Origin: an uncultured virus (IMG/VR IMGVR_UViG_3300044645_001931)
Lineage: Duplodnaviria > Heunggongvirae > Uroviricota > Caudoviricetes
Virus record (IMG/VR): IMGVR_UViG_3300044645_001931
Length of the DNA stretch: 64,000 nt
Direction: 5' to 3' (one strand)
The notes under the pieces were generated by a model that saw only the letters and a program-made list of their open reading frames with translations, searched no databases and was not told where the DNA came from. How positions within the stretch are numbered: position 1 is the first letter of the stretch; every line of letters begins with the position of its first letter. Shown piece by piece: positions 2,181 to 59,266 of this stretch. The position numbers and the translations under genes were made by a program.

Positions 2181-3031
2181 ATTAAATCCGGATCATAAAC
2201 ATTACAGTTTTCAATCTGCGTATAGTACTCCTCTACGATCTTGTACCAATCTTCCCGCAGGGAGTCTAAAAACCTGCGGGAGATCTTAAATACCTGGGTA
2301 CGAATCGGAGTCGATACAAGGATTGCCGCCTGCTGGACCTTCATGCCAAGAGTCTGCTCGATAGCAATGTCATAGGCAGCGAGCTGCTTACAAGTTTTTT
2401 TAAATTTCATGTGACCACCAAGCAGGTCTCTCCACTCTTGGGACCCCTTTTCCAAATCTTTCGGCCACTTGCGGCTGTAGGGTTTGACGCTGGTCTTTAG
2501 GTCAGCAAGCGTCAGTTTGTTATTGGCAACAGCAATAATATCAGGAGCACCAGCCCAAGCACGACCTTCTGAGTCACAGCCCCATACGCGAGCAACGTCA
2601 TCAGAACCAATAGTGAAGTTAAATTTATCCAGAACAGGGGACTCGGCCCAAAGGATCTCCTCAAATTGATCCAGAATTGGCGGCATACCTGCCCAAAAGT
2701 CCGCATATTCCTCTTTGATTTCCGGATTTTTATTTCCTTTGAGGTACTGTTCCATGCCGTAGTGGATGGCAGTACCCCTTTCGGCAGCAGCTTCTTTAAC
2801 ACCTGGGTTAGCTTTCGACCACATTTCGAGCTTCCGTTTATTTGCTTCGGAAGCTGTCTCACCAATAATAGTAGTTACGGACGGCGCAGGTCCAGTGGGT
2901 AACGGCGTTGTATAGTGACGTCTGCCGTTAAGCGTAATTCTGGCTGCGGTCCGATTGAGTGACCGCATCATCTCAGGTTGCTCGTCCTTGGCTTTAATCC
3001 AAGGATCTGATGTATCTATCTTAGCAACCAT
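2177..3031 (-). CDS. PD-(D/E)XK phage exonuclease
   Basis: PSVTTII, RGTAIH, GAPD...LADLKT and QLAAY motifs. Confidence 0.85.
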   Translation of the reverse strand: MVAKIDTSDPWIKAKDEQPEMMRSLNRTAARITLNGRRHYTTPLPTGPAPSVTTIIGETASEANKRKLEMWSKANPGVKEAAAERGTAIHYGMEQYLKGNKNPEIKEEYADFWAGMPPILDQFEEILWAESPVLDKFNFTIGSDDVARVWGCDSEGRAWAGAPDIIAVANNKLTLADLKTSVKPYSRKWPKDLEKGSQEWRDLLGGHMKFKKTCKQLAAYDIAIEQTLGMKVQQAAILVSTPIRTQVFKISRRFLDSLREDWYKIVEEYYTQIENCNVYDPDLI

Positions 3032-3082
3032 TGATGGTTTTGTATATTGCTGCTAGTTTAGCAGATGAGTCAACTACGTGTG

Positions 3083-3187
3083 ATGGACGGATTCAACTAC
3101 GCAATCGCTTCAATCCTTGGCGCCATGCTCGTCGTGATTAGCATGGACGCCTACCTGTTCTTCATGGAAGTCGCATCTCGTCAATGA
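3083..3187 (+). CDS. Small membrane peptide (34 aa)
   Basis: MDGFNYAIASILGAMLVVISMDAYLFFMEVASRQ; ATGA-coupled to hli. Confidence 0.5.
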   Translation: MDGFNYAIASILGAMLVVISMDAYLFFMEVASRQ

Positions 3188-3558: not shown

Positions 3559-4140
3559 ATGACACGTACCTGGGACAACTACTTCAAACCCATTAAAAGC
3601 AAACTGGGTGCACGTCAGCATACCTTCCAAAAGATTTTTAAGTATCTAGATGAACGCAGTAATCCAGTCATCATTGAAACTGGTACATACCGAGAAGAAA
3701 ACAATTACACGGGTGATGGCTGCTCAACACTTCTGTTCGATAACTACATCGACATCCGTGGAGAAGGCGAATTGATTTCAATTGACATTGATCCAGGTGC
3801 TTGCGCCCTGGCTCGACTATCTACCAAACATGCCGATGTTATTGAATCAGATTCCGTAGAAGCACTTGATACCTTTACTGGTACATGCGACCTCCTCTAC
3901 TTGGATTCTTACAACATCACAGATTGGAACAATGACTGGGCACCGGCTGCCCATCATCTCAAGGAGATGTTTGCAGCACATTCTTTGCTTGCCCCTGGGA
4001 CTTTGATCGTTGTTGACGACAATATCAAAGCTCCAGATGGACGTCGTCACGGCAAAGGACGTCTTGTTTATGAACTTATGCAATCAATTGGCATTGAACC
4101 ATGGTTTGATTCCTACCAAATTGGTTGGATCTGGTACTAG
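3559..4140 (+). CDS. Class I SAM-dependent methyltransferase (Methyltransf_24-like)
   Basis: IIETGT, SIDID, DLLYLDS and IVVDDN motifs. Confidence 0.75.
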   Translation: MTRTWDNYFKPIKSKLGARQHTFQKIFKYLDERSNPVIIETGTYREENNYTGDGCSTLLFDNYIDIRGEGELISIDIDPGACALARLSTKHADVIESDSVEALDTFTGTCDLLYLDSYNITDWNNDWAPAAHHLKEMFAAHSLLAPGTLIVVDDNIKAPDGRRHGKGRLVYELMQSIGIEPWFDSYQIGWIWY

Positions 4141-4572: not shown

Positions 4573-4857
4573 ATGGCGCAGGATGATAGCAAGTACTCAA
4601 AACCTGAGTTACGTGAGCGGATTAAAGATCGCGTGATGTCTGGTTCCAAGGGTGGCAAGCCTGGACAATGGTCTGCACGTAAGGCTCAGCTTGTTGCCAG
4701 TGAGTACAAGGAAGCTGGTGGTGGATACAAAGGCGGCAAAGGTAAGAAACAAAAGTCTTTAGAGAAGTGGGGCAAAGAAAAGTGGCAAACCAAAGATGAG
4801 TATGAGAAACGTAACAAGGCTAAGTCTGCTGCCAAGAAGTACAAGGAAAGCAAGTAA
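4573..4857 (+). CDS. Basic protein, N-terminal half of a DUF5872-like protein
   Basis: KGGKPGQWSARKAQLVASEYKEAGGGY motif. Confidence 0.65.
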   Translation: MAQDDSKYSKPELRERIKDRVMSGSKGGKPGQWSARKAQLVASEYKEAGGGYKGGKGKKQKSLEKWGKEKWQTKDEYEKRNKAKSAAKKYKESK

Positions 4858-5057
4858 TGGCAGACAAAGCAATTCAAAAAGGATACACTAAACGTTACTT
4901 ACCAGAGAAAGCGTGGGCTTCACTGTCTAAAGAAGAACGTGCGGAGACTGACCAAAAGAAAAGAGCTGGCAGTAGAGAAGGTAAACAATTTGTAGCTAAC
5001 ACTGAACGTGCCAAAAAAGCTGGACGTGCAGCTCGCCGTTATAAACAAGGTAAGTAA
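4857..5057 (+). CDS. Basic protein, C-terminal half of a DUF5872-like protein
   Basis: RYLPEKAWASLS...GKQFVANT; TAATG-coupled to the previous ORF. Confidence 0.6.
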   Translation: MADKAIQKGYTKRYLPEKAWASLSKEERAETDQKKRAGSREGKQFVANTERAKKAGRAARRYKQGK

Positions 5058-5087
5058 CTTTATAATCAATAAAGATACTTAACGATC

Positions 5088-5252
5088 ATGGCTAAAGCAG
5101 TTCCGCCTAAAGGCAAAGCTGTTCCTCCCAAGGGTAAAAAAGCTCCGGATAAAGGCAAAGCAGGTGGCACTGACAAGCAAGCTGCTGCCCGCGACAAGTT
5201 CAAAGCAATGATCGAAGCAAAGAAAGCCGCAGCCGCAAAGAAGAAGAAATGA
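5088..5252 (+). CDS. Lys/Ala-rich small protein (54 aa)
   Basis: MAKAVPPKGKAVPPKGKK...AAAAKKKK; TATAAT at 5061. Confidence 0.65.
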   Translation: MAKAVPPKGKAVPPKGKKAPDKGKAGGTDKQAAARDKFKAMIEAKKAAAAKKKK

Positions 5253-5359
5253 TGGTATCCTGACATACAGAGCAATATCGCTCTGGAGCCAATAGTCGAA
5301 AGCTCCTTCACGTTACGAACGTAGTGCTTAGCAACAAGTTGGGTGAGAAGGAAGCTATG

Positions 5360-5385
5360 ATCCCGGTATTACACCGGGATTTTTT
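5360..5385 (+). terminator. Rho-independent terminator
   Basis: atcccggt-attac-accgggat followed by a T run. Confidence 0.7.
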
Positions 5386-6057
5386 GTGACAACTCTTGTT
5401 GCCAACGTACCGCCAATCAAAGTATGGGTCCGCAAGGAGTATTTGTACGACCTTCAGAAAGGACATGGTGAGTACACACCTGGCTATTGGGTTACCTGTA
5501 AATCACTTACGGGTCGAGCATTGTACTTTGAAACGTACTTGACTGAGTACGGGGCCTTGTATGACAAGCTTCCTATTAGTGCGTTTCTTGCATGGGACTC
5601 AGACTATCCTGACAAACCCAAAGAACCTACACCTGACCTGGAGCTAACCGACCTTCAGTTCTGGAATGGGTTTGACCATGGGCTTACGGTCGTTGAAAAG
5701 AATTTAATCTTCAACATGGGTTTTGAAGTCCTGACACGAAGCGCAGGTGTAATGAAGGGCACATATTTATTTACCGTAGACAACTATCATCCTCATAGGA
5801 ACGAACCTGATTTTTACTTCTCGGAGTTTCCTGATGAGCACAAATCCCATAACATTGTGGCTTTGGACAACGGTCAAATTGGCGCTTATCCCAACAATCG
5901 GTGTCGCATGGTTGATCCATCATTGAGTTATCACAATCTCAAGACACCAGACTTCAAGGTATCAACACGATACTTTGATGTGGAACACGCCCCCAAGTGG
6001 GGTCGTCTTGGAGAAAACGATGAGTACTTTTGGAAAACACCTAATGAAGATGTATAA
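5386..6057 (+). CDS. Conserved hypothetical phage protein
   Basis: 223 aa ORF with well-formed globular sequence (EHKSHNIVALDNGQIGAYPNNR). Confidence 0.75.
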   Translation: MTTLVANVPPIKVWVRKEYLYDLQKGHGEYTPGYWVTCKSLTGRALYFETYLTEYGALYDKLPISAFLAWDSDYPDKPKEPTPDLELTDLQFWNGFDHGLTVVEKNLIFNMGFEVLTRSAGVMKGTYLFTVDNYHPHRNEPDFYFSEFPDEHKSHNIVALDNGQIGAYPNNRCRMVDPSLSYHNLKTPDFKVSTRYFDVEHAPKWGRLGENDEYFWKTPNEDV

Positions 6058-6062
6058 TAATT

Positions 6063-6430
6063 GAGTTCCCCCTCTCTTTCCGATGGGGCTCGGGTGACTC
6101 GTTAGGCAGATAGCCTAGAAGGAGAGCCTTTAAGTCCAGGATTTTCCTGGCCTCTCCGGGTTTACCAACCTTTGCTCTCTGTTAGTAAAGGCCCTGGAGC
6201 GACAATGATAGAGGTGCAGTCCCTGTCTGGATACGCCTGGTTAACTCACAGCCCGATTGTCGGTACGTCAGTTACACTGCATCCATCTATCCTGCATGAA
6301 ACGCCCTGAAGCAAGTAAGGCCCTGAAGCCTTGCATCATGCGCAACACCCCCTATGCTTAGCTCCTATACGTAGACCATTTTGTTGACGTCACCAAAATG
6401 GTTTTCAGGATGATGCACAAACCAGGGGGT
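6063..6430 (+). ncRNA. Candidate highly structured ncRNA(s)
   Basis: No ORF; TATAAT at 6053; many complementary segments including crossing (pseudoknot) pairings. Confidence 0.6.
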
Positions 6431-6434
6431 CACT

Positions 6435-6505
6435 CGGTCGGTAGTCTATTGGTAAGGACGGGCAGACAATGCACGAGAAAGCTGGTTCGATTCCAGCACG
6501 ACCGA
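6435..6505 (+). ncRNA. tRNA-like element with a collapsed anticodon arm
   Basis: Acceptor CGGTCG/CGACCG, D arm GTCT/GGAC, T arm GCTGG-TTCGATT-CCAGC; no 7-nt anticodon loop. Confidence 0.6.
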
Positions 6506-6594
6506 TCAGGGTGCAACAAGGAACGTTGCATTAAACAAAGGATCCCCTCGGCCGCATCGTAGATCATCGTAGGCGGACATCCTTGCCCTAACAC

Positions 6595-6666
6595 CGGGAA
6601 TTAGCGCAGCGGTAGCGCGTCTGCTTTGGGAGCAGAAAGTCGCAGGTTCGATCCCTGCATTCCCGA
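6595..6666 (+). tRNA. tRNA-Pro(UGG)
   Basis: Full cloverleaf; anticodon arm TCTGC-TT TGG GA-GCAGA; T loop TTCGATC. Confidence 0.95.
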
Positions 6667-6667
6667 T

Positions 6668-6743
6668 CACCTGGTCCGAGCTAATTGGATAAGACGGTTA
6701 CTGCCGCTGCAGGACGATGTAGGTTCGACTCCTACCCAGGTGC
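6668..6743 (+). ncRNA. tRNA-like element with an atypical D/anticodon region
   Basis: Perfect acceptor CACCTGG/CCAGGTG and T arm GTAGG-TTCGACT-CCTAC; anticodon hairpin CTGC-CGCT-GCAG has only a 4-nt loop. Confidence 0.55.
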
Positions 6744-6817
6744 TATTAAGAATCTCAATAAACCACGTTTATTGAGAAAACTGATAAATTATAGGTACAC
6801 GTGCACAAAAACTATAC

Positions 6818-7072
6818 GTGACCTGGGACACTGCTAAAAAACGTATCGATAAGAATCGACAGAAGCTTCTGGAGTACAAGAAGACTTTGGAGTGCAAGAA
6901 GTGTGGGCTGAATGATCATCGTGTCCTTGAGTTCCACCACATAGGTGACAAGGACAATAACATCTCATCCATGGTCAACCATGGTTACGCCTGGAGCAGG
7001 GTAGAGGAAGAGATCAGTAAATGTATTCCGCTATGCTGCAACTGCCATAGGCTTGAGCATTGGGCTAGTTAA
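6818..7072 (+). CDS. Small HNH-like endonuclease
   Basis: CKKCG...LEFHH...LCCNCHRLEH. Confidence 0.75.
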   Translation: MTWDTAKKRIDKNRQKLLEYKKTLECKKCGLNDHRVLEFHHIGDKDNNISSMVNHGYAWSRVEEEISKCIPLCCNCHRLEHWAS

Positions 7073-7989
7073 CGGAATTTAAATTGAACAGGATAGCCAG
7101 CACCTGGTTGAATAAAACCAAACTTATCCGCAAGGCCAAGAGCCCTATCCGCTAGTTTTCTGCTGCCTTCAGGTTCACCTACAACACCGCCAACCATAGA
7201 GCCTGGGGCAAATAAAGGTATGCCTACGTTGTAGGAATTAAAATCATATCTTTCATCAGCAGTTTGACCGTCTTGCACTTTATAACGCCCTAAAGTATTA
7301 ACCAATCCTTTATTGACAAGAGCCGCTTGTTCTTGATTTAAACCCAAGCCTTGTGCGCCAATATTCCCATAATCACTAACAACGTAATTAGATGGCGTAT
7401 ATCCTTGCTGTCTTTGTTTAATTTTTTGTTCTGTTGTTAGAACAGCTAAATCATTTCGATCTCTTAATCCTAGTTGTTTTGTATATTCATTTACTTTTTG
7501 ATCTAGTATATTTACTTGATTTAGTTGTTCTTGAGTTGCAGGTGAACCTTTGCCATACATGTTATACATTTCGTTTTGACTGTTTACTGCTCTAGAGGCA
7601 TTCATCCAATCACTAAAAGTTTTTTCAGCTGTTAATCGCAAAGGATTTACGGTTATTTGTTGTGTTAGTTCTTTGTTCAGCAAAGCTTCTGCAGCTTTGG
7701 TATCAGCAGGAATGCGTGTTAAAGGTTGCGAAGTGCCTGAAAGAAACCTTGCAAACATCCCTTCTTTGGCAGGAACAATACCTGCTTCCATTCCTTTATC
7801 TAAGAGGGGAACAGCAACTTTATCTCGTACGGTTTTATAAATTGGGGATTGTGAGATATTCCGAATATCAGGAGCAATACTAGAAGAAATAGATGCTCCT
7901 CCTGGCAACACGCCTTTAAATACATTTTTATCAAGTTGACCGTATCCTCGGCTTACTTGATTGAGTAAGTTTTGAAATACGTTAGGCAT
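7069..7989 (-). CDS. Hypothetical protein, possibly virion-internal; AT-rich
   Basis: Long ORF; likely start MPNVFQNLLNQV coupled to the Dps-like stop. Confidence 0.7.
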   Translation of the reverse strand: MPNVFQNLLNQVSRGYGQLDKNVFKGVLPGGASISSSIAPDIRNISQSPIYKTVRDKVAVPLLDKGMEAGIVPAKEGMFARFLSGTSQPLTRIPADTKAAEALLNKELTQQITVNPLRLTAEKTFSDWMNASRAVNSQNEMYNMYGKGSPATQEQLNQVNILDQKVNEYTKQLGLRDRNDLAVLTTEQKIKQRQQGYTPSNYVVSDYGNIGAQGLGLNQEQAALVNKGLVNTLGRYKVQDGQTADERYDFNSYNVGIPLFAPGSMVGGVVGEPEGSRKLADRALGLADKFGFIQPGAGYPVQFKFR

Positions 7990-23402: not shown

Positions 23403-23765
23403 TTAGGCAGGATTTGCGTCGGTGTCAATGAACTTGTCATAGAGACCAGCATCTTTAAGGCGCTCAAGCATCCCACACATCATGGTGGCATGGGCTTGCG
23501 TGGTCTCCATGAAGTGCCGTGCTCGTTCTGCTGAGATCACATGGACGTTGCCATTGGGTTCGACGTACTTCCATGAGCCATCGGGCTGTGGCTCACCCTG
23601 GAGCGCAAGCTTCTCAGAGTTACGGACGTACCGCATTTCAAGGTTGTGGTAGTCACGCAGACCTTCGTTGTCGGTCCAGGTAGCACCAATGTTGTAACGC
23701 TTGTCCTCATCTGCATAAGCATGGAACTCAGGGATGATGGACTTAAAAGCAGCAAAGAATTGCAT
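23403..23765 (-). CDS. Hypothetical early protein
   Basis: 120 aa ORF preceded by the hairpin motif and CAACTCAAC leader. Confidence 0.7.
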   Translation of the reverse strand: MQFFAAFKSIIPEFHAYADEDKRYNIGATWTDNEGLRDYHNLEMRYVRNSEKLALQGEPQPDGSWKYVEPNGNVHVISAERARHFMETTQAHATMMCGMLERLKDAGLYDKFIDTDANPA

Positions 23766-23834
23766 GATGTTGAGTTGGAGGTAAGTTGTTAGCCAGGGAC
23801 TTACACTTTAGAGATGCCCAGGTTAATCAAATTT

Positions 23835-26658: not shown

Positions 26659-26843
26659 CAGTTGTCCTCCACGTAGGAATGGTGGGTGGTTTTGATGAGG
26701 CGGTACTTCATCCACAGACGTGCTGTGTCGTACTCGCCATTGAATCGTGTTTCATCTAAAACATTTGCACTTGCTCTGCGCTTTGCGCAGTCAGCAAGAT
26801 TGATGCGATCAAACATGTTGAGATAGTCGACGTAAGCAGACAT
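26658..26843 (-). CDS. Hypothetical protein
   Basis: Start MSAYVDY follows the leader motif. Confidence 0.55.
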   Translation of the reverse strand: MSAYVDYLNMFDRINLADCAKRRASANVLDETRFNGEYDTARLWMKYRLIKTTHHSYVEDN

Positions 26844-26903
26844 GAGTTGAGTTGAATTGGTGGACAAGACCTGGGACTTACACCGTAAGGATGCCCAGGA
26901 TCT

Positions 26904-30069: not shown

Positions 30070-30317
30070 ATAAAGTACTGAGGCAATTGAATACGTGCAC
30101 AGTAATAGACATGTGATGTACTGGTGCATGCGTAGTCTTGGTTAGATCCATCCCAGATGAAACGTTGTCCATCTGAGAATGTAATATAGCCAGTACCAAG
30201 GTACTGTTGAATGCACACTGTCGTGGTGCATATGAAGTTGAGCATGGGTTGAGCTGAGTAAATGGACAGTAAACCCTGGGACTTACACACCGTGCTTACG
30301 TCGGTGCTGCCCAGGGA

Positions 30318-30542
30318 TCAGAAGGTATTAGCCACCTTTGTTGCTAAGGAATCAACAAAGGTTGAACCATCTTCTTGGAATGCGAGCATGTATTGTTCAC
30401 GCTCGTCTTCATCCATCAGTGCACCCAAGGTGTGGTGTGCATGATAGAAGGCTAGTGCGTTGACGATTGCATACTTCTCATCAACGGTGATGATGAGGTG
30501 ATACCGCTTGTTGTCTTCAGTCTGATCCATGAGTGCGCCCAT
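30318..30542 (-). CDS. Hypothetical protein
   Basis: Leader motif upstream. Confidence 0.6.
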   Translation of the reverse strand: MGALMDQTEDNKRYHLIITVDEKYAIVNALAFYHAHHTLGALMDEDEREQYMLAFQEDGSTFVDSLATKVANTF

Positions 30543-30627
30543 GTTGAGTTGAGGTAGGTGAATAGTTGAGCATGGGACTTACACCACTCTTGCGAATGGT
30601 TCTCAATAGTGGATGCCCATGTGTTGG

Positions 30628-58909: not shown

Positions 58910-59266
58910 ATGTTTTGCAGCCAGCACGAGCCCCTCGCCCTGCTAGTTGAATTAACACCAAAGCTTGCCAAGAAACGTTTTAGAGAAAGTATATATCAAG
59001 CCTGGGATCATAAGTGTGGTTATTGCGGCGAGGCTGCCACGAGCCTTGATCACATTATTCCACGTTTTAAATCTGGTTGTTCTAATCGTCATAACTTAGT
59101 TCCAGCTTGTAAAAAATGCAATGCAAACAAAGCATCAAGCGATATGGAGACTTGGTACAAACAACAAGAGTACTTTTCAGAAGATAAGCTGGATAGAATT
59201 AAAGCCTGGATGGATTTGTCCTATCCCAAGGTCATTGACCTAAGAGATTTTAAAGAAGCGTCATGA
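58910..59266 (+). CDS. HNH endonuclease
   Basis: CGYCG...SLDHIIP...NLVPACKKCNANK. Confidence 0.85.
   Translation: MFCSQHEPLALLVELTPKLAKKRFRESIYQAWDHKCGYCGEAATSLDHIIPRFKSGCSNRHNLVPACKKCNANKASSDMETWYKQQEYFSEDKLDRIKAWMDLSYPKVIDLRDFKEAS

Follow-up and report, generated by a model that had tools for sequence, protein, structure and literature searches.

Does the non-coding DNA that heads a phage transfer RNA (tRNA) cluster encode one large structured RNA or several small RNAs in an array? The question is raised by a stretch of 64,000 nucleotides (nt) from an uncultured virus of the Caudoviricetes (IMG/VR record IMGVR_UViG_3300044645_001931), hereafter the window, in which positions 6058-6433 form a non-coding gap between an open reading frame (ORF) of 223 amino acids (aa; 5386..6057, PHROG 3704) and a tRNA cluster. 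The window comes from a tailed phage, with genes for a family A DNA polymerase, a terminase, ThyX, a lysozyme and virion proteins, and its closest cultured relatives by DNA are Synechococcus phages. An earlier note had described 6063-6430 as a multi-domain pseudoknotted RNA of about 370 nt, possibly a new large RNA or an array of small ones. Its reading of the gap as non-coding is borne out: 6063-6430 contains no ORF of at least 30 aa that starts with ATG, only TTG frames of 45 and 34 aa. Comparison with related loci reveals a mosaic, and the gap is very probably a chain of independent small RNAs, the last of which descends from the abiF motif.

Mosaic composition of the array

The best 80 loci fetched through the upstream ORF were compared with the window (599 of the 600 candidate stretches were confirmed). 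The whole 376 nt is present in none of these syntenic loci; pieces match separately, in blocks with sharp borders. Six modules were delimited in this way: M1 (6063-6091), M2 (6092-6129), M3 (6132-6199), M4 (6207-6291), M5 (6293-6342) and M6 (6347-6430). With nhmmer, M1 was detected in 21 of the 80 loci, M2 in 15, M3 in none, M4 in seven, M5 in one and M6 in nine, and a further module of the cluster, M8, in 11. The related viral contigs carry the modules singly, in varied order and combination, and nested in one another, within the tRNA arrays of quite different contigs of up to 190 kb. The M2 core, for example, lies inside the M4 loop in loci L025, L135 and L189, and apical hairpins have been exchanged in M4, M6 and M8. 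A self-search of the 64-kb window found no second copy of any module, and a search of phage records with 5900-6900 gave matches limited to the tRNAs, M8 and the upstream ORF. Of the two forms envisaged in the earlier note, the array is therefore retained, the modules occurring independently, and the single large RNA is not.

Additional copies were obtained by scanning for module cores, which yielded 139 loci for M2 (59 viral and 80 metagenomic) and nine viral loci for M5. A 15-letter M6 pattern gave mostly chance matches, and about 16 of the 117 stretches that it retrieved were real by nhmmer. Folding energy is uninformative here, because the z score is close to -2.4 on both strands (-2.35 on the plus strand, -2.44 on the minus strand).

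Database models recognise none of this directly. Rfam gave no match over 6063-6430 at gathering scores, nor on sub-stretches at E-values up to 10 or up to 5; the GOLLD, ROOL, manA and wcaG models found nothing in the window (gathering scores or E-values up to 10); and neither ARAGORN nor the Rfam tRNA model placed a tRNA in 6063-6430. Tandem direct repeats of the ToxI type, with a unit of 34-50 nt ahead of a toxin gene, are likewise absent: the six modules are mutually unlike and no toxin gene follows. M2, M3, M4, M5 and M8 belong to no Rfam family (Rfam 15). The view that nothing known lies in the gap is thus correct as far as Rfam matches on the window go, and fails for the last domain, which derives from the Rfam abiF motif, as intermediates in related arrays show. 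The expectation that structured phage RNAs sit beside tRNAs was sound, and the related arrays hold manA and wcaG too.

M6, an expanded abiF motif, and its partner M5

M6, with its CACU spacer (6431-6434), occupies 6347..6434 on the plus strand. It keeps the 7-base-pair (bp) helix P1 (6347-6353/6424-6430), the 3-bp helix P2 and the 3' bulge (CAAACC) of the abiF motif (RF03085, also AbiFr or RCd22), the antitoxin RNA of the type III toxin-antitoxin and abortive-infection system whose toxin, AbiF, is an Abi_2 protein of the HEPN type. An extension helix bearing a 28-nt near-palindrome (6375-6402) takes the place of its terminal loop. Judged by its alignment with canonical relatives, M6 is an expanded derivative of this motif. 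In that alignment (A2, 18 sequences), 96.8% of the cells are paired and five pairs have changed on both sides, giving a covariation score of 0.074 against 0.035 in shuffled alignments (reached in 0 of 500 shuffles). P1 is 94.4% paired with two compensatory pairs, P2 is 100% paired with a U-A pair swapped to A-U, and the bulge, of the CAAAYC type, is invariant in the 18 sequences. The accccct/agggggt domain proposed earlier is upheld by these aligned relatives.

Canonical RF03085 matches, at 50.7-53.7 bits, occur in the arrays of phage S-CREM1 and of loci L208 and L218. They have P1, P2, the bulge and the 5' and 3' flanks in common with M6, and only the terminal loop differs. The 11-nt abiF loop, CUCUCAACGAU, is reduced in M6 to its first two and last three letters, with the extension helix between them. 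This helix exists in a short form that adds 12 nt and in a long form that adds 46 nt, the latter being that of the window; a short-form intermediate in L025 scores 26.7 bits with RF03085 (E-value 0.0019). The palindrome at the apex of M6 has a TGACGTCA centre. It is also found by itself, between tRNA-Leu genes, at L017 6432-6466, L199 591-628 and L215 1173-1210, and because it is solitary in these other arrays a mobile hairpin is suggested.

In bacteria the abiF loop together with P2 is letter-perfect in at least 123 stretches, mostly of Bacteroidales, and no cyanobacterium appears among the best 80 of the at least 123 loci of this genome scan. The bacterial copies end in a U-run, and an Abi_2 ORF (277-304 aa) follows in nine of the 13 sampled loci. 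M6 differs from them in having an extension helix with a 34-nt hairpin where bacteria have the invariant 11-nt loop, and in its setting: behind it there is no Abi_2 gene and no U-run, and a tRNA-like element follows after 4 nt. None of the 75 ORFs of the window encodes Abi_2, nor does any in the nearest virus record. AbiF has been proposed as the ancestor of Cas13. Among the 25 distinct 3' flanks of abiF-type modules, 14 have a called tRNA after 3-4 nt, the spacer being CAC or CACU.

Immediately upstream of M6, M5 (6293..6342, plus strand) consists of P1 (6293-6299/6336-6342) and P2 (6315-6321/6328-6334), the latter with a CCUGAA loop; the same 8-mer comes again in the 5' internal loop. This is the gcatga/tcatgc domain of the earlier note, and it stands: across seven distinct sequences (A6), 99.0% of the cells are paired, with three compensatory pairs. 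The covariation score is 0.201 against 0.144 in shuffles, 15 of 500 of which reach it; support for the predicted M5 fold is moderate, because shuffles reach the observed values in 10-17 of 500 cases. All eight true matches to M5 are directly followed by an abiF-type module, canonical in L382 and L383 and expanded in the other six, and since each directly follows M5, the canonical and expanded forms fill the same slot. M6 shares with the canonical phage copies both its flanks and this position, after M5 and before a tRNA.

Conserved folds of the other modules

M2 (6092..6129, plus strand) is a hairpin of 38 nt built in three tiers, namely an outer stem of 4 bp, a CUC/GAG middle stem and an inner stem of 6 bp, and has an AGAUA loop. 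Among 41 distinct sequences (A1), 96.4% of 533 cells are paired and six of the 13 pairs have changed on both sides, with a covariation score of 0.357, a value attained by 0 of 500 shuffles (shuffled score 0.129). As a control, sliding the partner strand by one to three columns left at most 52% of the cells paired. Rfam returned nothing for M2 at E-values up to 5. In 61 of the 139 loci M2 starts between -2 and +4 nt from a tRNA 3' end, without M1, and in 63 it stands behind M1.

The best covariation of all modules belongs to M8 (6508..6589, plus strand), a three-way-junction RNA that lies between the tRNA-like element and tRNA-Pro and is not in Rfam. In 24 sequences (A3), 99.6% of 528 cells are paired and nine of 22 pairs have changed on both sides; the score is 0.342 against 0.198 shuffled (reached by 0 of 500). 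Its apical loop, 17 nt long, is conserved and has CGUAG repeated in it; five apical states exist, depending on the inserts, and the module is present, unannotated, in the cultured phages S-CREM1 and DSL-LC03.

M1 (6063..6091, plus strand) is a leader hairpin with a 4-bp CCCC/GGGG core (6068-6071/6085-6088) and an invariant, pyrimidine-rich loop of 13 nt. In alignment A5 (29 sequences), 88.7% of the cells are paired and three pairs have changed on both sides, with a score of 0.193 against 0.064 shuffled (0 of 500). A 5' hairpin with longer arms had been predicted here. The hairpin is real: its core is paired in 29 of 29 sequences, with a C-G pair swapped to G-C in six, and the two outer pairs, in the GAG/CUC arms, are unpaired in 11 of 29. 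The M1 loop had also been proposed to form a pseudoknot with 6118-6126, in the 3' strand of M2. The two segments are complementary over nine positions, but both are near-invariant and M1 and M2 also occur apart.

M3 (6132..6199, plus strand) consists of two hairpins, the first at 6136-6150 and the second with an outer (6154-6160/6193-6199) and an inner helix (6169-6175/6185-6191). A single full relative was found (L235/L236), in which the helices are kept through changes of G-U to G-C; shorter two-hairpin look-alikes occur in L018/L106, L025/L189, L135, L161 and L026, and by nhmmer M3 is absent from 80 of 80 syntenic loci. All complementary segments named in the earlier note are present in the sequence, and those in M3 are paired otherwise. 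The gggtttaccaac/gttagtaaaggccc stem is not retained in the one relative found, where the nested outer and inner helices are kept, and 6152-6157, taken as an alternative partner of 6118-6126, pairs with 6193-6199 in the outer helix of M3.

M4 (6207..6291, plus strand) has a long basal helix (6207-6220/6276-6291) and a 45-nt apical insert. Its scaffold is found in four apical states: without insert, with a 22-nt hairpin, with the M2 core and with the insert of the window. The upper stem shows three compensatory pairs between two classes, and the lower stem and base show uncompensated changes. Two crossing helices had been drawn in this region. The long helix is real, and the crossing one (6200-6206/6256-6262) lacks conservation, with a 5' arm confined to the window and, in shorter form, L235/L236, and a 3' arm that is invariant everywhere. 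Conservation thus supports neither of the two proposed pseudoknots.

Strand and transcription

G-U pairs make up 52 of the 533 cells in M2 and 20 of 528 in M8, where the opposite strand would give A-C, and all 316 tRNAs called by ARAGORN across the 139 M2 loci (161/161 and 155/155) are co-oriented with M2. On these two grounds the RNA is assigned to the plus strand.

A promoter-like site, TTGGAA-17-TATAAT (6030..6058, plus strand), with ten of 12 consensus matches, overlaps the stop codon of the upstream ORF. The TATAAT at 6053 named in the earlier note is its -10 part. The match is weak by itself, as a scan for promoters gave two overlapping sites against 2.6 expected in shuffles. A -10-like hexamer (TAnnnT) is kept at this position in the relatives aligned there, and M2 directly follows such a hexamer in metagenome loci L395, L404 and L420. 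No terminator-like site was found on the plus strand within or behind the modules.

Metatranscriptome contigs from four runs of three studies map on 6025-6788, one of them identical over 6094-6244. Others bridge M4, M5 and M6, or M6, the tRNA-like element and M8, and some skip exactly 6129-6206, 6291-6341 or 6435-6507, which are module borders. Runs X17 and X18 cover the modules and leave the flanking ORF parts of 5300-7300 uncovered; as missing cover proves nothing, this contrast was not counted as evidence.

tRNA-like elements of the cluster

Two tRNA look-alikes of the window have no normal anticodon arm. The one at 6435..6507 (plus strand) is called tRNA-Cys(ACA) by ARAGORN and scores 33.8 bits with the Rfam tRNA model, where the anticodon region appears as a local insertion. 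Its anticodon arm is unaligned and a G stands at the expected U33, features that make its role as a decoder doubtful; its homologue in S-CREM1 (L257 ~2421-2494) was left unannotated. Beyond M8 lies an ordinary tRNA-Pro(UGG) (6595..6666, plus strand; ARAGORN, Rfam 70.7 bits), followed by the second look-alike, M10 (6667..6745, plus strand), with perfect acceptor and T arms, whose anticodon loop is replaced by a short stem ending in a loop of 4 nt. M10 is called by neither ARAGORN nor Rfam; it is conserved in ten of the 80 syntenic loci and carries long inserts in L025 and L037. At L001 ~3930-3997 and L018 ~3985-4052 the place of tRNA-Pro is taken by a degenerate tRNA-Pro(UGG)-like element, uncalled by ARAGORN, with an intact anticodon arm and an aberrant D region and T loop.

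Neighbouring features of the window

An A/T-rich hairpin of 11 bp (6753-6777) marks the end of the array. It lies ahead of a gene, 70 nt beyond the array, for an HNH endonuclease of 84 aa (6818-7072, PHROG 2255), a likely driver of cassette exchange; a second HNH gene is located at 58910-59263. Upstream, at 4573-5252, three adjacent small ORFs (94, 66 and 54 aa) have a very high content of Lys, Ala and Gly, contain KGK and KKA repeats and by composition look like basic nucleic-acid-binding proteins; the 94-aa ORF (4573-4854) has no Pfam match. On the minus strand there are four copies of an element of ~45 nt (23737-23806, 26814-26883, 30219-30288 and 30515-30584) that starts with GTGTAAGTCCC and ends just ahead of an ATG. 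It also occurs in phage S-EIVl (L258 ~1530) and is probably a phage promoter or leader motif. The start of M3, TAAGTCC, is related to it.

Proposed function and alternative explanations

We propose that 6063-6430 would form the 5' portion of a tRNA transcription unit of the phage that is read from 6030-6058 on the plus strand, with a transcript carrying in order M1 to M6, the tRNA-like element, M8, tRNA-Pro and the second look-alike. The cassettes are exchangeable parts, shuffled among the tRNA arrays of freshwater and estuarine Synechococcus-type phages. Because the modules abut tRNAs or look-alikes, the host enzymes that mature tRNAs would presumably cut out the cassettes as well. Cleavage by ribonuclease (RNase) Z behind an upstream tRNA would create the 5' end of M2-type modules, and cleavage by RNase P ahead of the tRNA or tRNA-like element that comes next would give abiF-type modules their 3' end; as M6 ends 4 nt ahead of the tRNA-like element, RNase P may set its 3' end. 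The products would be discrete small RNAs, available early in infection. Among them, M5-M6 would mimic a host antitoxin and hold an AbiF-type abortive-infection toxin off, as the pseudo-ToxI of phage PhiTE does, and a decoy is the most likely job for this pair because the phage has the abiF RNA without the toxin. Such a role is not extended to M2, since none of its 139 loci is a bacterial, toxin-linked copy.

The known biology gives this proposal a basis. The abiF-motif RNA is described as the antitoxin of the HEPN RNase AbiF, which it binds directly, blocking the active site (10.1101/2025.04.15.648962; PMC12737573; PMC13064643), and a hairpin of phage sk1 inhibits AbiF according to a review (PMC13064643). 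We consider the whole explanation, a tRNA-punctuated chain of cassettes with M5-M6 as a decoy, somewhat probable. That M5-M6 acts as an AbiF decoy is in itself a tentative proposal, the main doubts being the lost loop and the host AbiF.

Several observations weigh against this explanation. M6 of the window gives no RF03085 match at E-values up to 10 in searches with 1001 nt and 97 nt (gathering score 37 bits) and, its loop lost, may no longer bind AbiF. In 11 of the 25 abiF-type flanks no tRNA is called within 10 nt, although in several of these tRNA look-alikes uncalled by ARAGORN follow, and the lack of a toxin-linked M2 points the same way. Most copies of M2, M5 and M6 were fetched by exact core patterns, and for that reason the invariance of their cores holds by construction; only columns outside the fetched cores are unbiased, and the compensatory pairs of M2 fall mostly in those columns. 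Support for the candidate M3 fold is weak, with two sequences, and the M4 helix rests on two haplotype classes. Finally, the metatranscriptome contigs are consistent with transcription, but strand, ends and separate molecules cannot be read from them, and RNA libraries can hold DNA.

As the chief alternative, the modules could be passive punctuation, that is, structured spacers that do not act in trans but prevent tRNA misfolding, guide or slow RNases E, P and Z, and protect the 5' end of the precursor, the abiF-like fold being a reused stable hairpin. Every copy does lie on the strand of the tRNAs, in a tRNA array or just behind a promoter; the modules border directly on tRNA ends, M1 is placed at the predicted 5' end, and M6 has no abiF loop. 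Yet unpaired parts are strongly kept in M2 (the AGAUA loop and an AAG bulge), M8 (the 17-nt loop) and M6 (CAAACC), and this is conservation beyond what a spacer needs. Moreover, in many related arrays the tRNAs follow one another at 1-5 nt without any spacer module, and M5 is always coupled to an abiF-type module, which leaves the spacer explanation rather unlikely. The cassette behaviour, the insertion of modules into one another's loops, the solitary copies of the 28-nt palindrome in L017, L199 and L215 and the HNH gene 70 nt beyond the array would also fit DNA-level elements without RNA function, either mobile palindromes or recombination or homing sites spread by the HNH endonuclease. This we regard as very unlikely: the G-U pairs are strand-asymmetric, two-sided changes preserve pairing, orientation follows the tRNAs in 316 of 316 cases, the 64-kb window holds no other copy and contigs from RNA libraries cover the stretch; mobility and RNA function are in any case not mutually exclusive.

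Riboswitch-like sensors acting in cis, by which read-through into the tRNAs or into the HNH gene would be governed, are suggested by the occurrence in the same kind of array of manA and wcaG, for which such a role has been proposed and which Rfam files as cis-regulatory (PMC2864571), and by the report that in bacteria the abiF RNA has a cis action too, exerted through a terminator (10.1101/2025.04.15.648962). The plus strand, however, has no terminator-like site within or behind the modules, and because the element behind each module varies by locus a fixed regulatory target is unlikely, so that cis-sensing is a highly improbable explanation. A single pseudoknotted RNA of several domains and about 370 nt, comparable to GOLLD or ROOL, has a probability close to negligible. 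The packing of the modules 1-7 nt apart, the RNA contigs that bridge neighbours and the nine complementary positions of the M1 loop and the M2 3' strand would be expected of it. The unit as such is nevertheless kept in 0 of 80 syntenic loci, RNA and DNA variants cleanly lack M3 or M5, the 5' arm of the crossing helix 6200-6206/6256-6262 is missing from most relatives, and M2 occurs without M1 in at least 61 loci.

The chain of cassettes with its M5-M6 decoy could be taken one step further, to a phage tRNA operon that serves to deliver a mixture of RNA decoys against host defences, although we think this extension unlikely. The tRNAs and the anticodon-less look-alikes would then be cutting marks for RNases P and Z, releasing antitoxin mimics and protein-binding hairpins, with M5-M6 directed against AbiF-type HEPN toxins and M2, M4 and M8 against other RNA-regulated defences, and phages would exchange the cassettes in step with changes in the defences of their hosts.

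Relation to known systems

A close parallel is the tRNA array of Synechococcus phage S-CREM1 (OP535465), for which wcaG, manA and a 37-nt abiF small RNA are annotated in the published description (PMC9964418). Rfam confirms all three in S-CREM1, and manA and wcaG were found in L257 (S-CREM1) and L208. The two arrays are alike in that small structured RNAs stand between the tRNAs, on a single strand, in a phage of the Synechococcus type, and S-CREM1 holds unannotated copies of M8 and of the tRNA-like element. The window, in contrast, is without manA or wcaG and belongs to an unrelated genome, roughly 60-90 kb in size, that encodes a family A polymerase. M2, M8 and canonical abiF occur among the Synechococcus phages S-CREM1, DSL-LC02, DSL-LC03 and S-SZBM1. 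At L257 (S-CREM1) 2200-3100 and at L208 260-360 and 1190-1226, wcaG, manA, abiF, M2 and M8 are combined between tRNAs. The manA and wcaG RNAs, filed as cis-regulators, may belong to the class of tRNA-punctuated small RNAs too.

Non-tRNA stable RNAs in a phage tRNA cluster have a precedent in species 1 and 2 of T4 (rnaC and rnaD), which are made from shared precursors. They are single species of 119-139 nt, whereas the cassettes described here are exchangeable and 30-90 nt long, and the two are likened by description. Release of an RNA by an adjoining tRNA or look-alike, which lets RNase P or Z define its end, is known from MALAT1-mascRNA (3' end by RNase P), from the tRNA-miRNA units of gammaherpesvirus 68 and from mitochondrial tRNA punctuation. 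The window has two anticodon-less look-alikes so placed. Those systems, however, are eukaryotic or organellar, and here processing is inferred from placement.

Phage mimicry of a type III antitoxin by RNA is itself on record, in the pseudo-ToxI of PhiTE (PMC3475682). It resembles the mechanism proposed for M5-M6 in being a phage-borne antitoxin RNA, without a toxin, that suppresses abortive infection. It differs in that it concerns the ToxN family and a tandem-repeat RNA and was established by genetics, the function of M5-M6 being proposed from its descent and setting.

Significance

That a cyanophage tRNA array can hold abiF, manA and wcaG is already in print, as the S-CREM1 report describes (PMC9964418). 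What is new is the expanded abiF derivative, with its obligate partner M5 and its fixed placement 3-4 nt before a tRNA instead of a terminator, and the families M2 and M8, which are well supported and occur neither in Rfam 15 nor in the literature found on such arrays. For M2, M3, M4, M5 and M8 no description was found in the literature on phage tRNA-array spacer hairpins, S-EIVl, AbiD in Synechococcus and manA.

Phage tRNA clusters are usually taken as devices for codon usage or against tRNases. The cluster of the window adds to them at least five conserved small RNA folds that are absent from catalogues, together with a remodelled abiF RNA, and the covariation of M2 and M8 is sufficient for filing them as new RNA families. 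If the decoy proves true, it would be a second natural case of RNA antitoxin mimicry by a phage, and it would explain what some of the non-tRNA RNAs of phage tRNA clusters do, a question of long standing.

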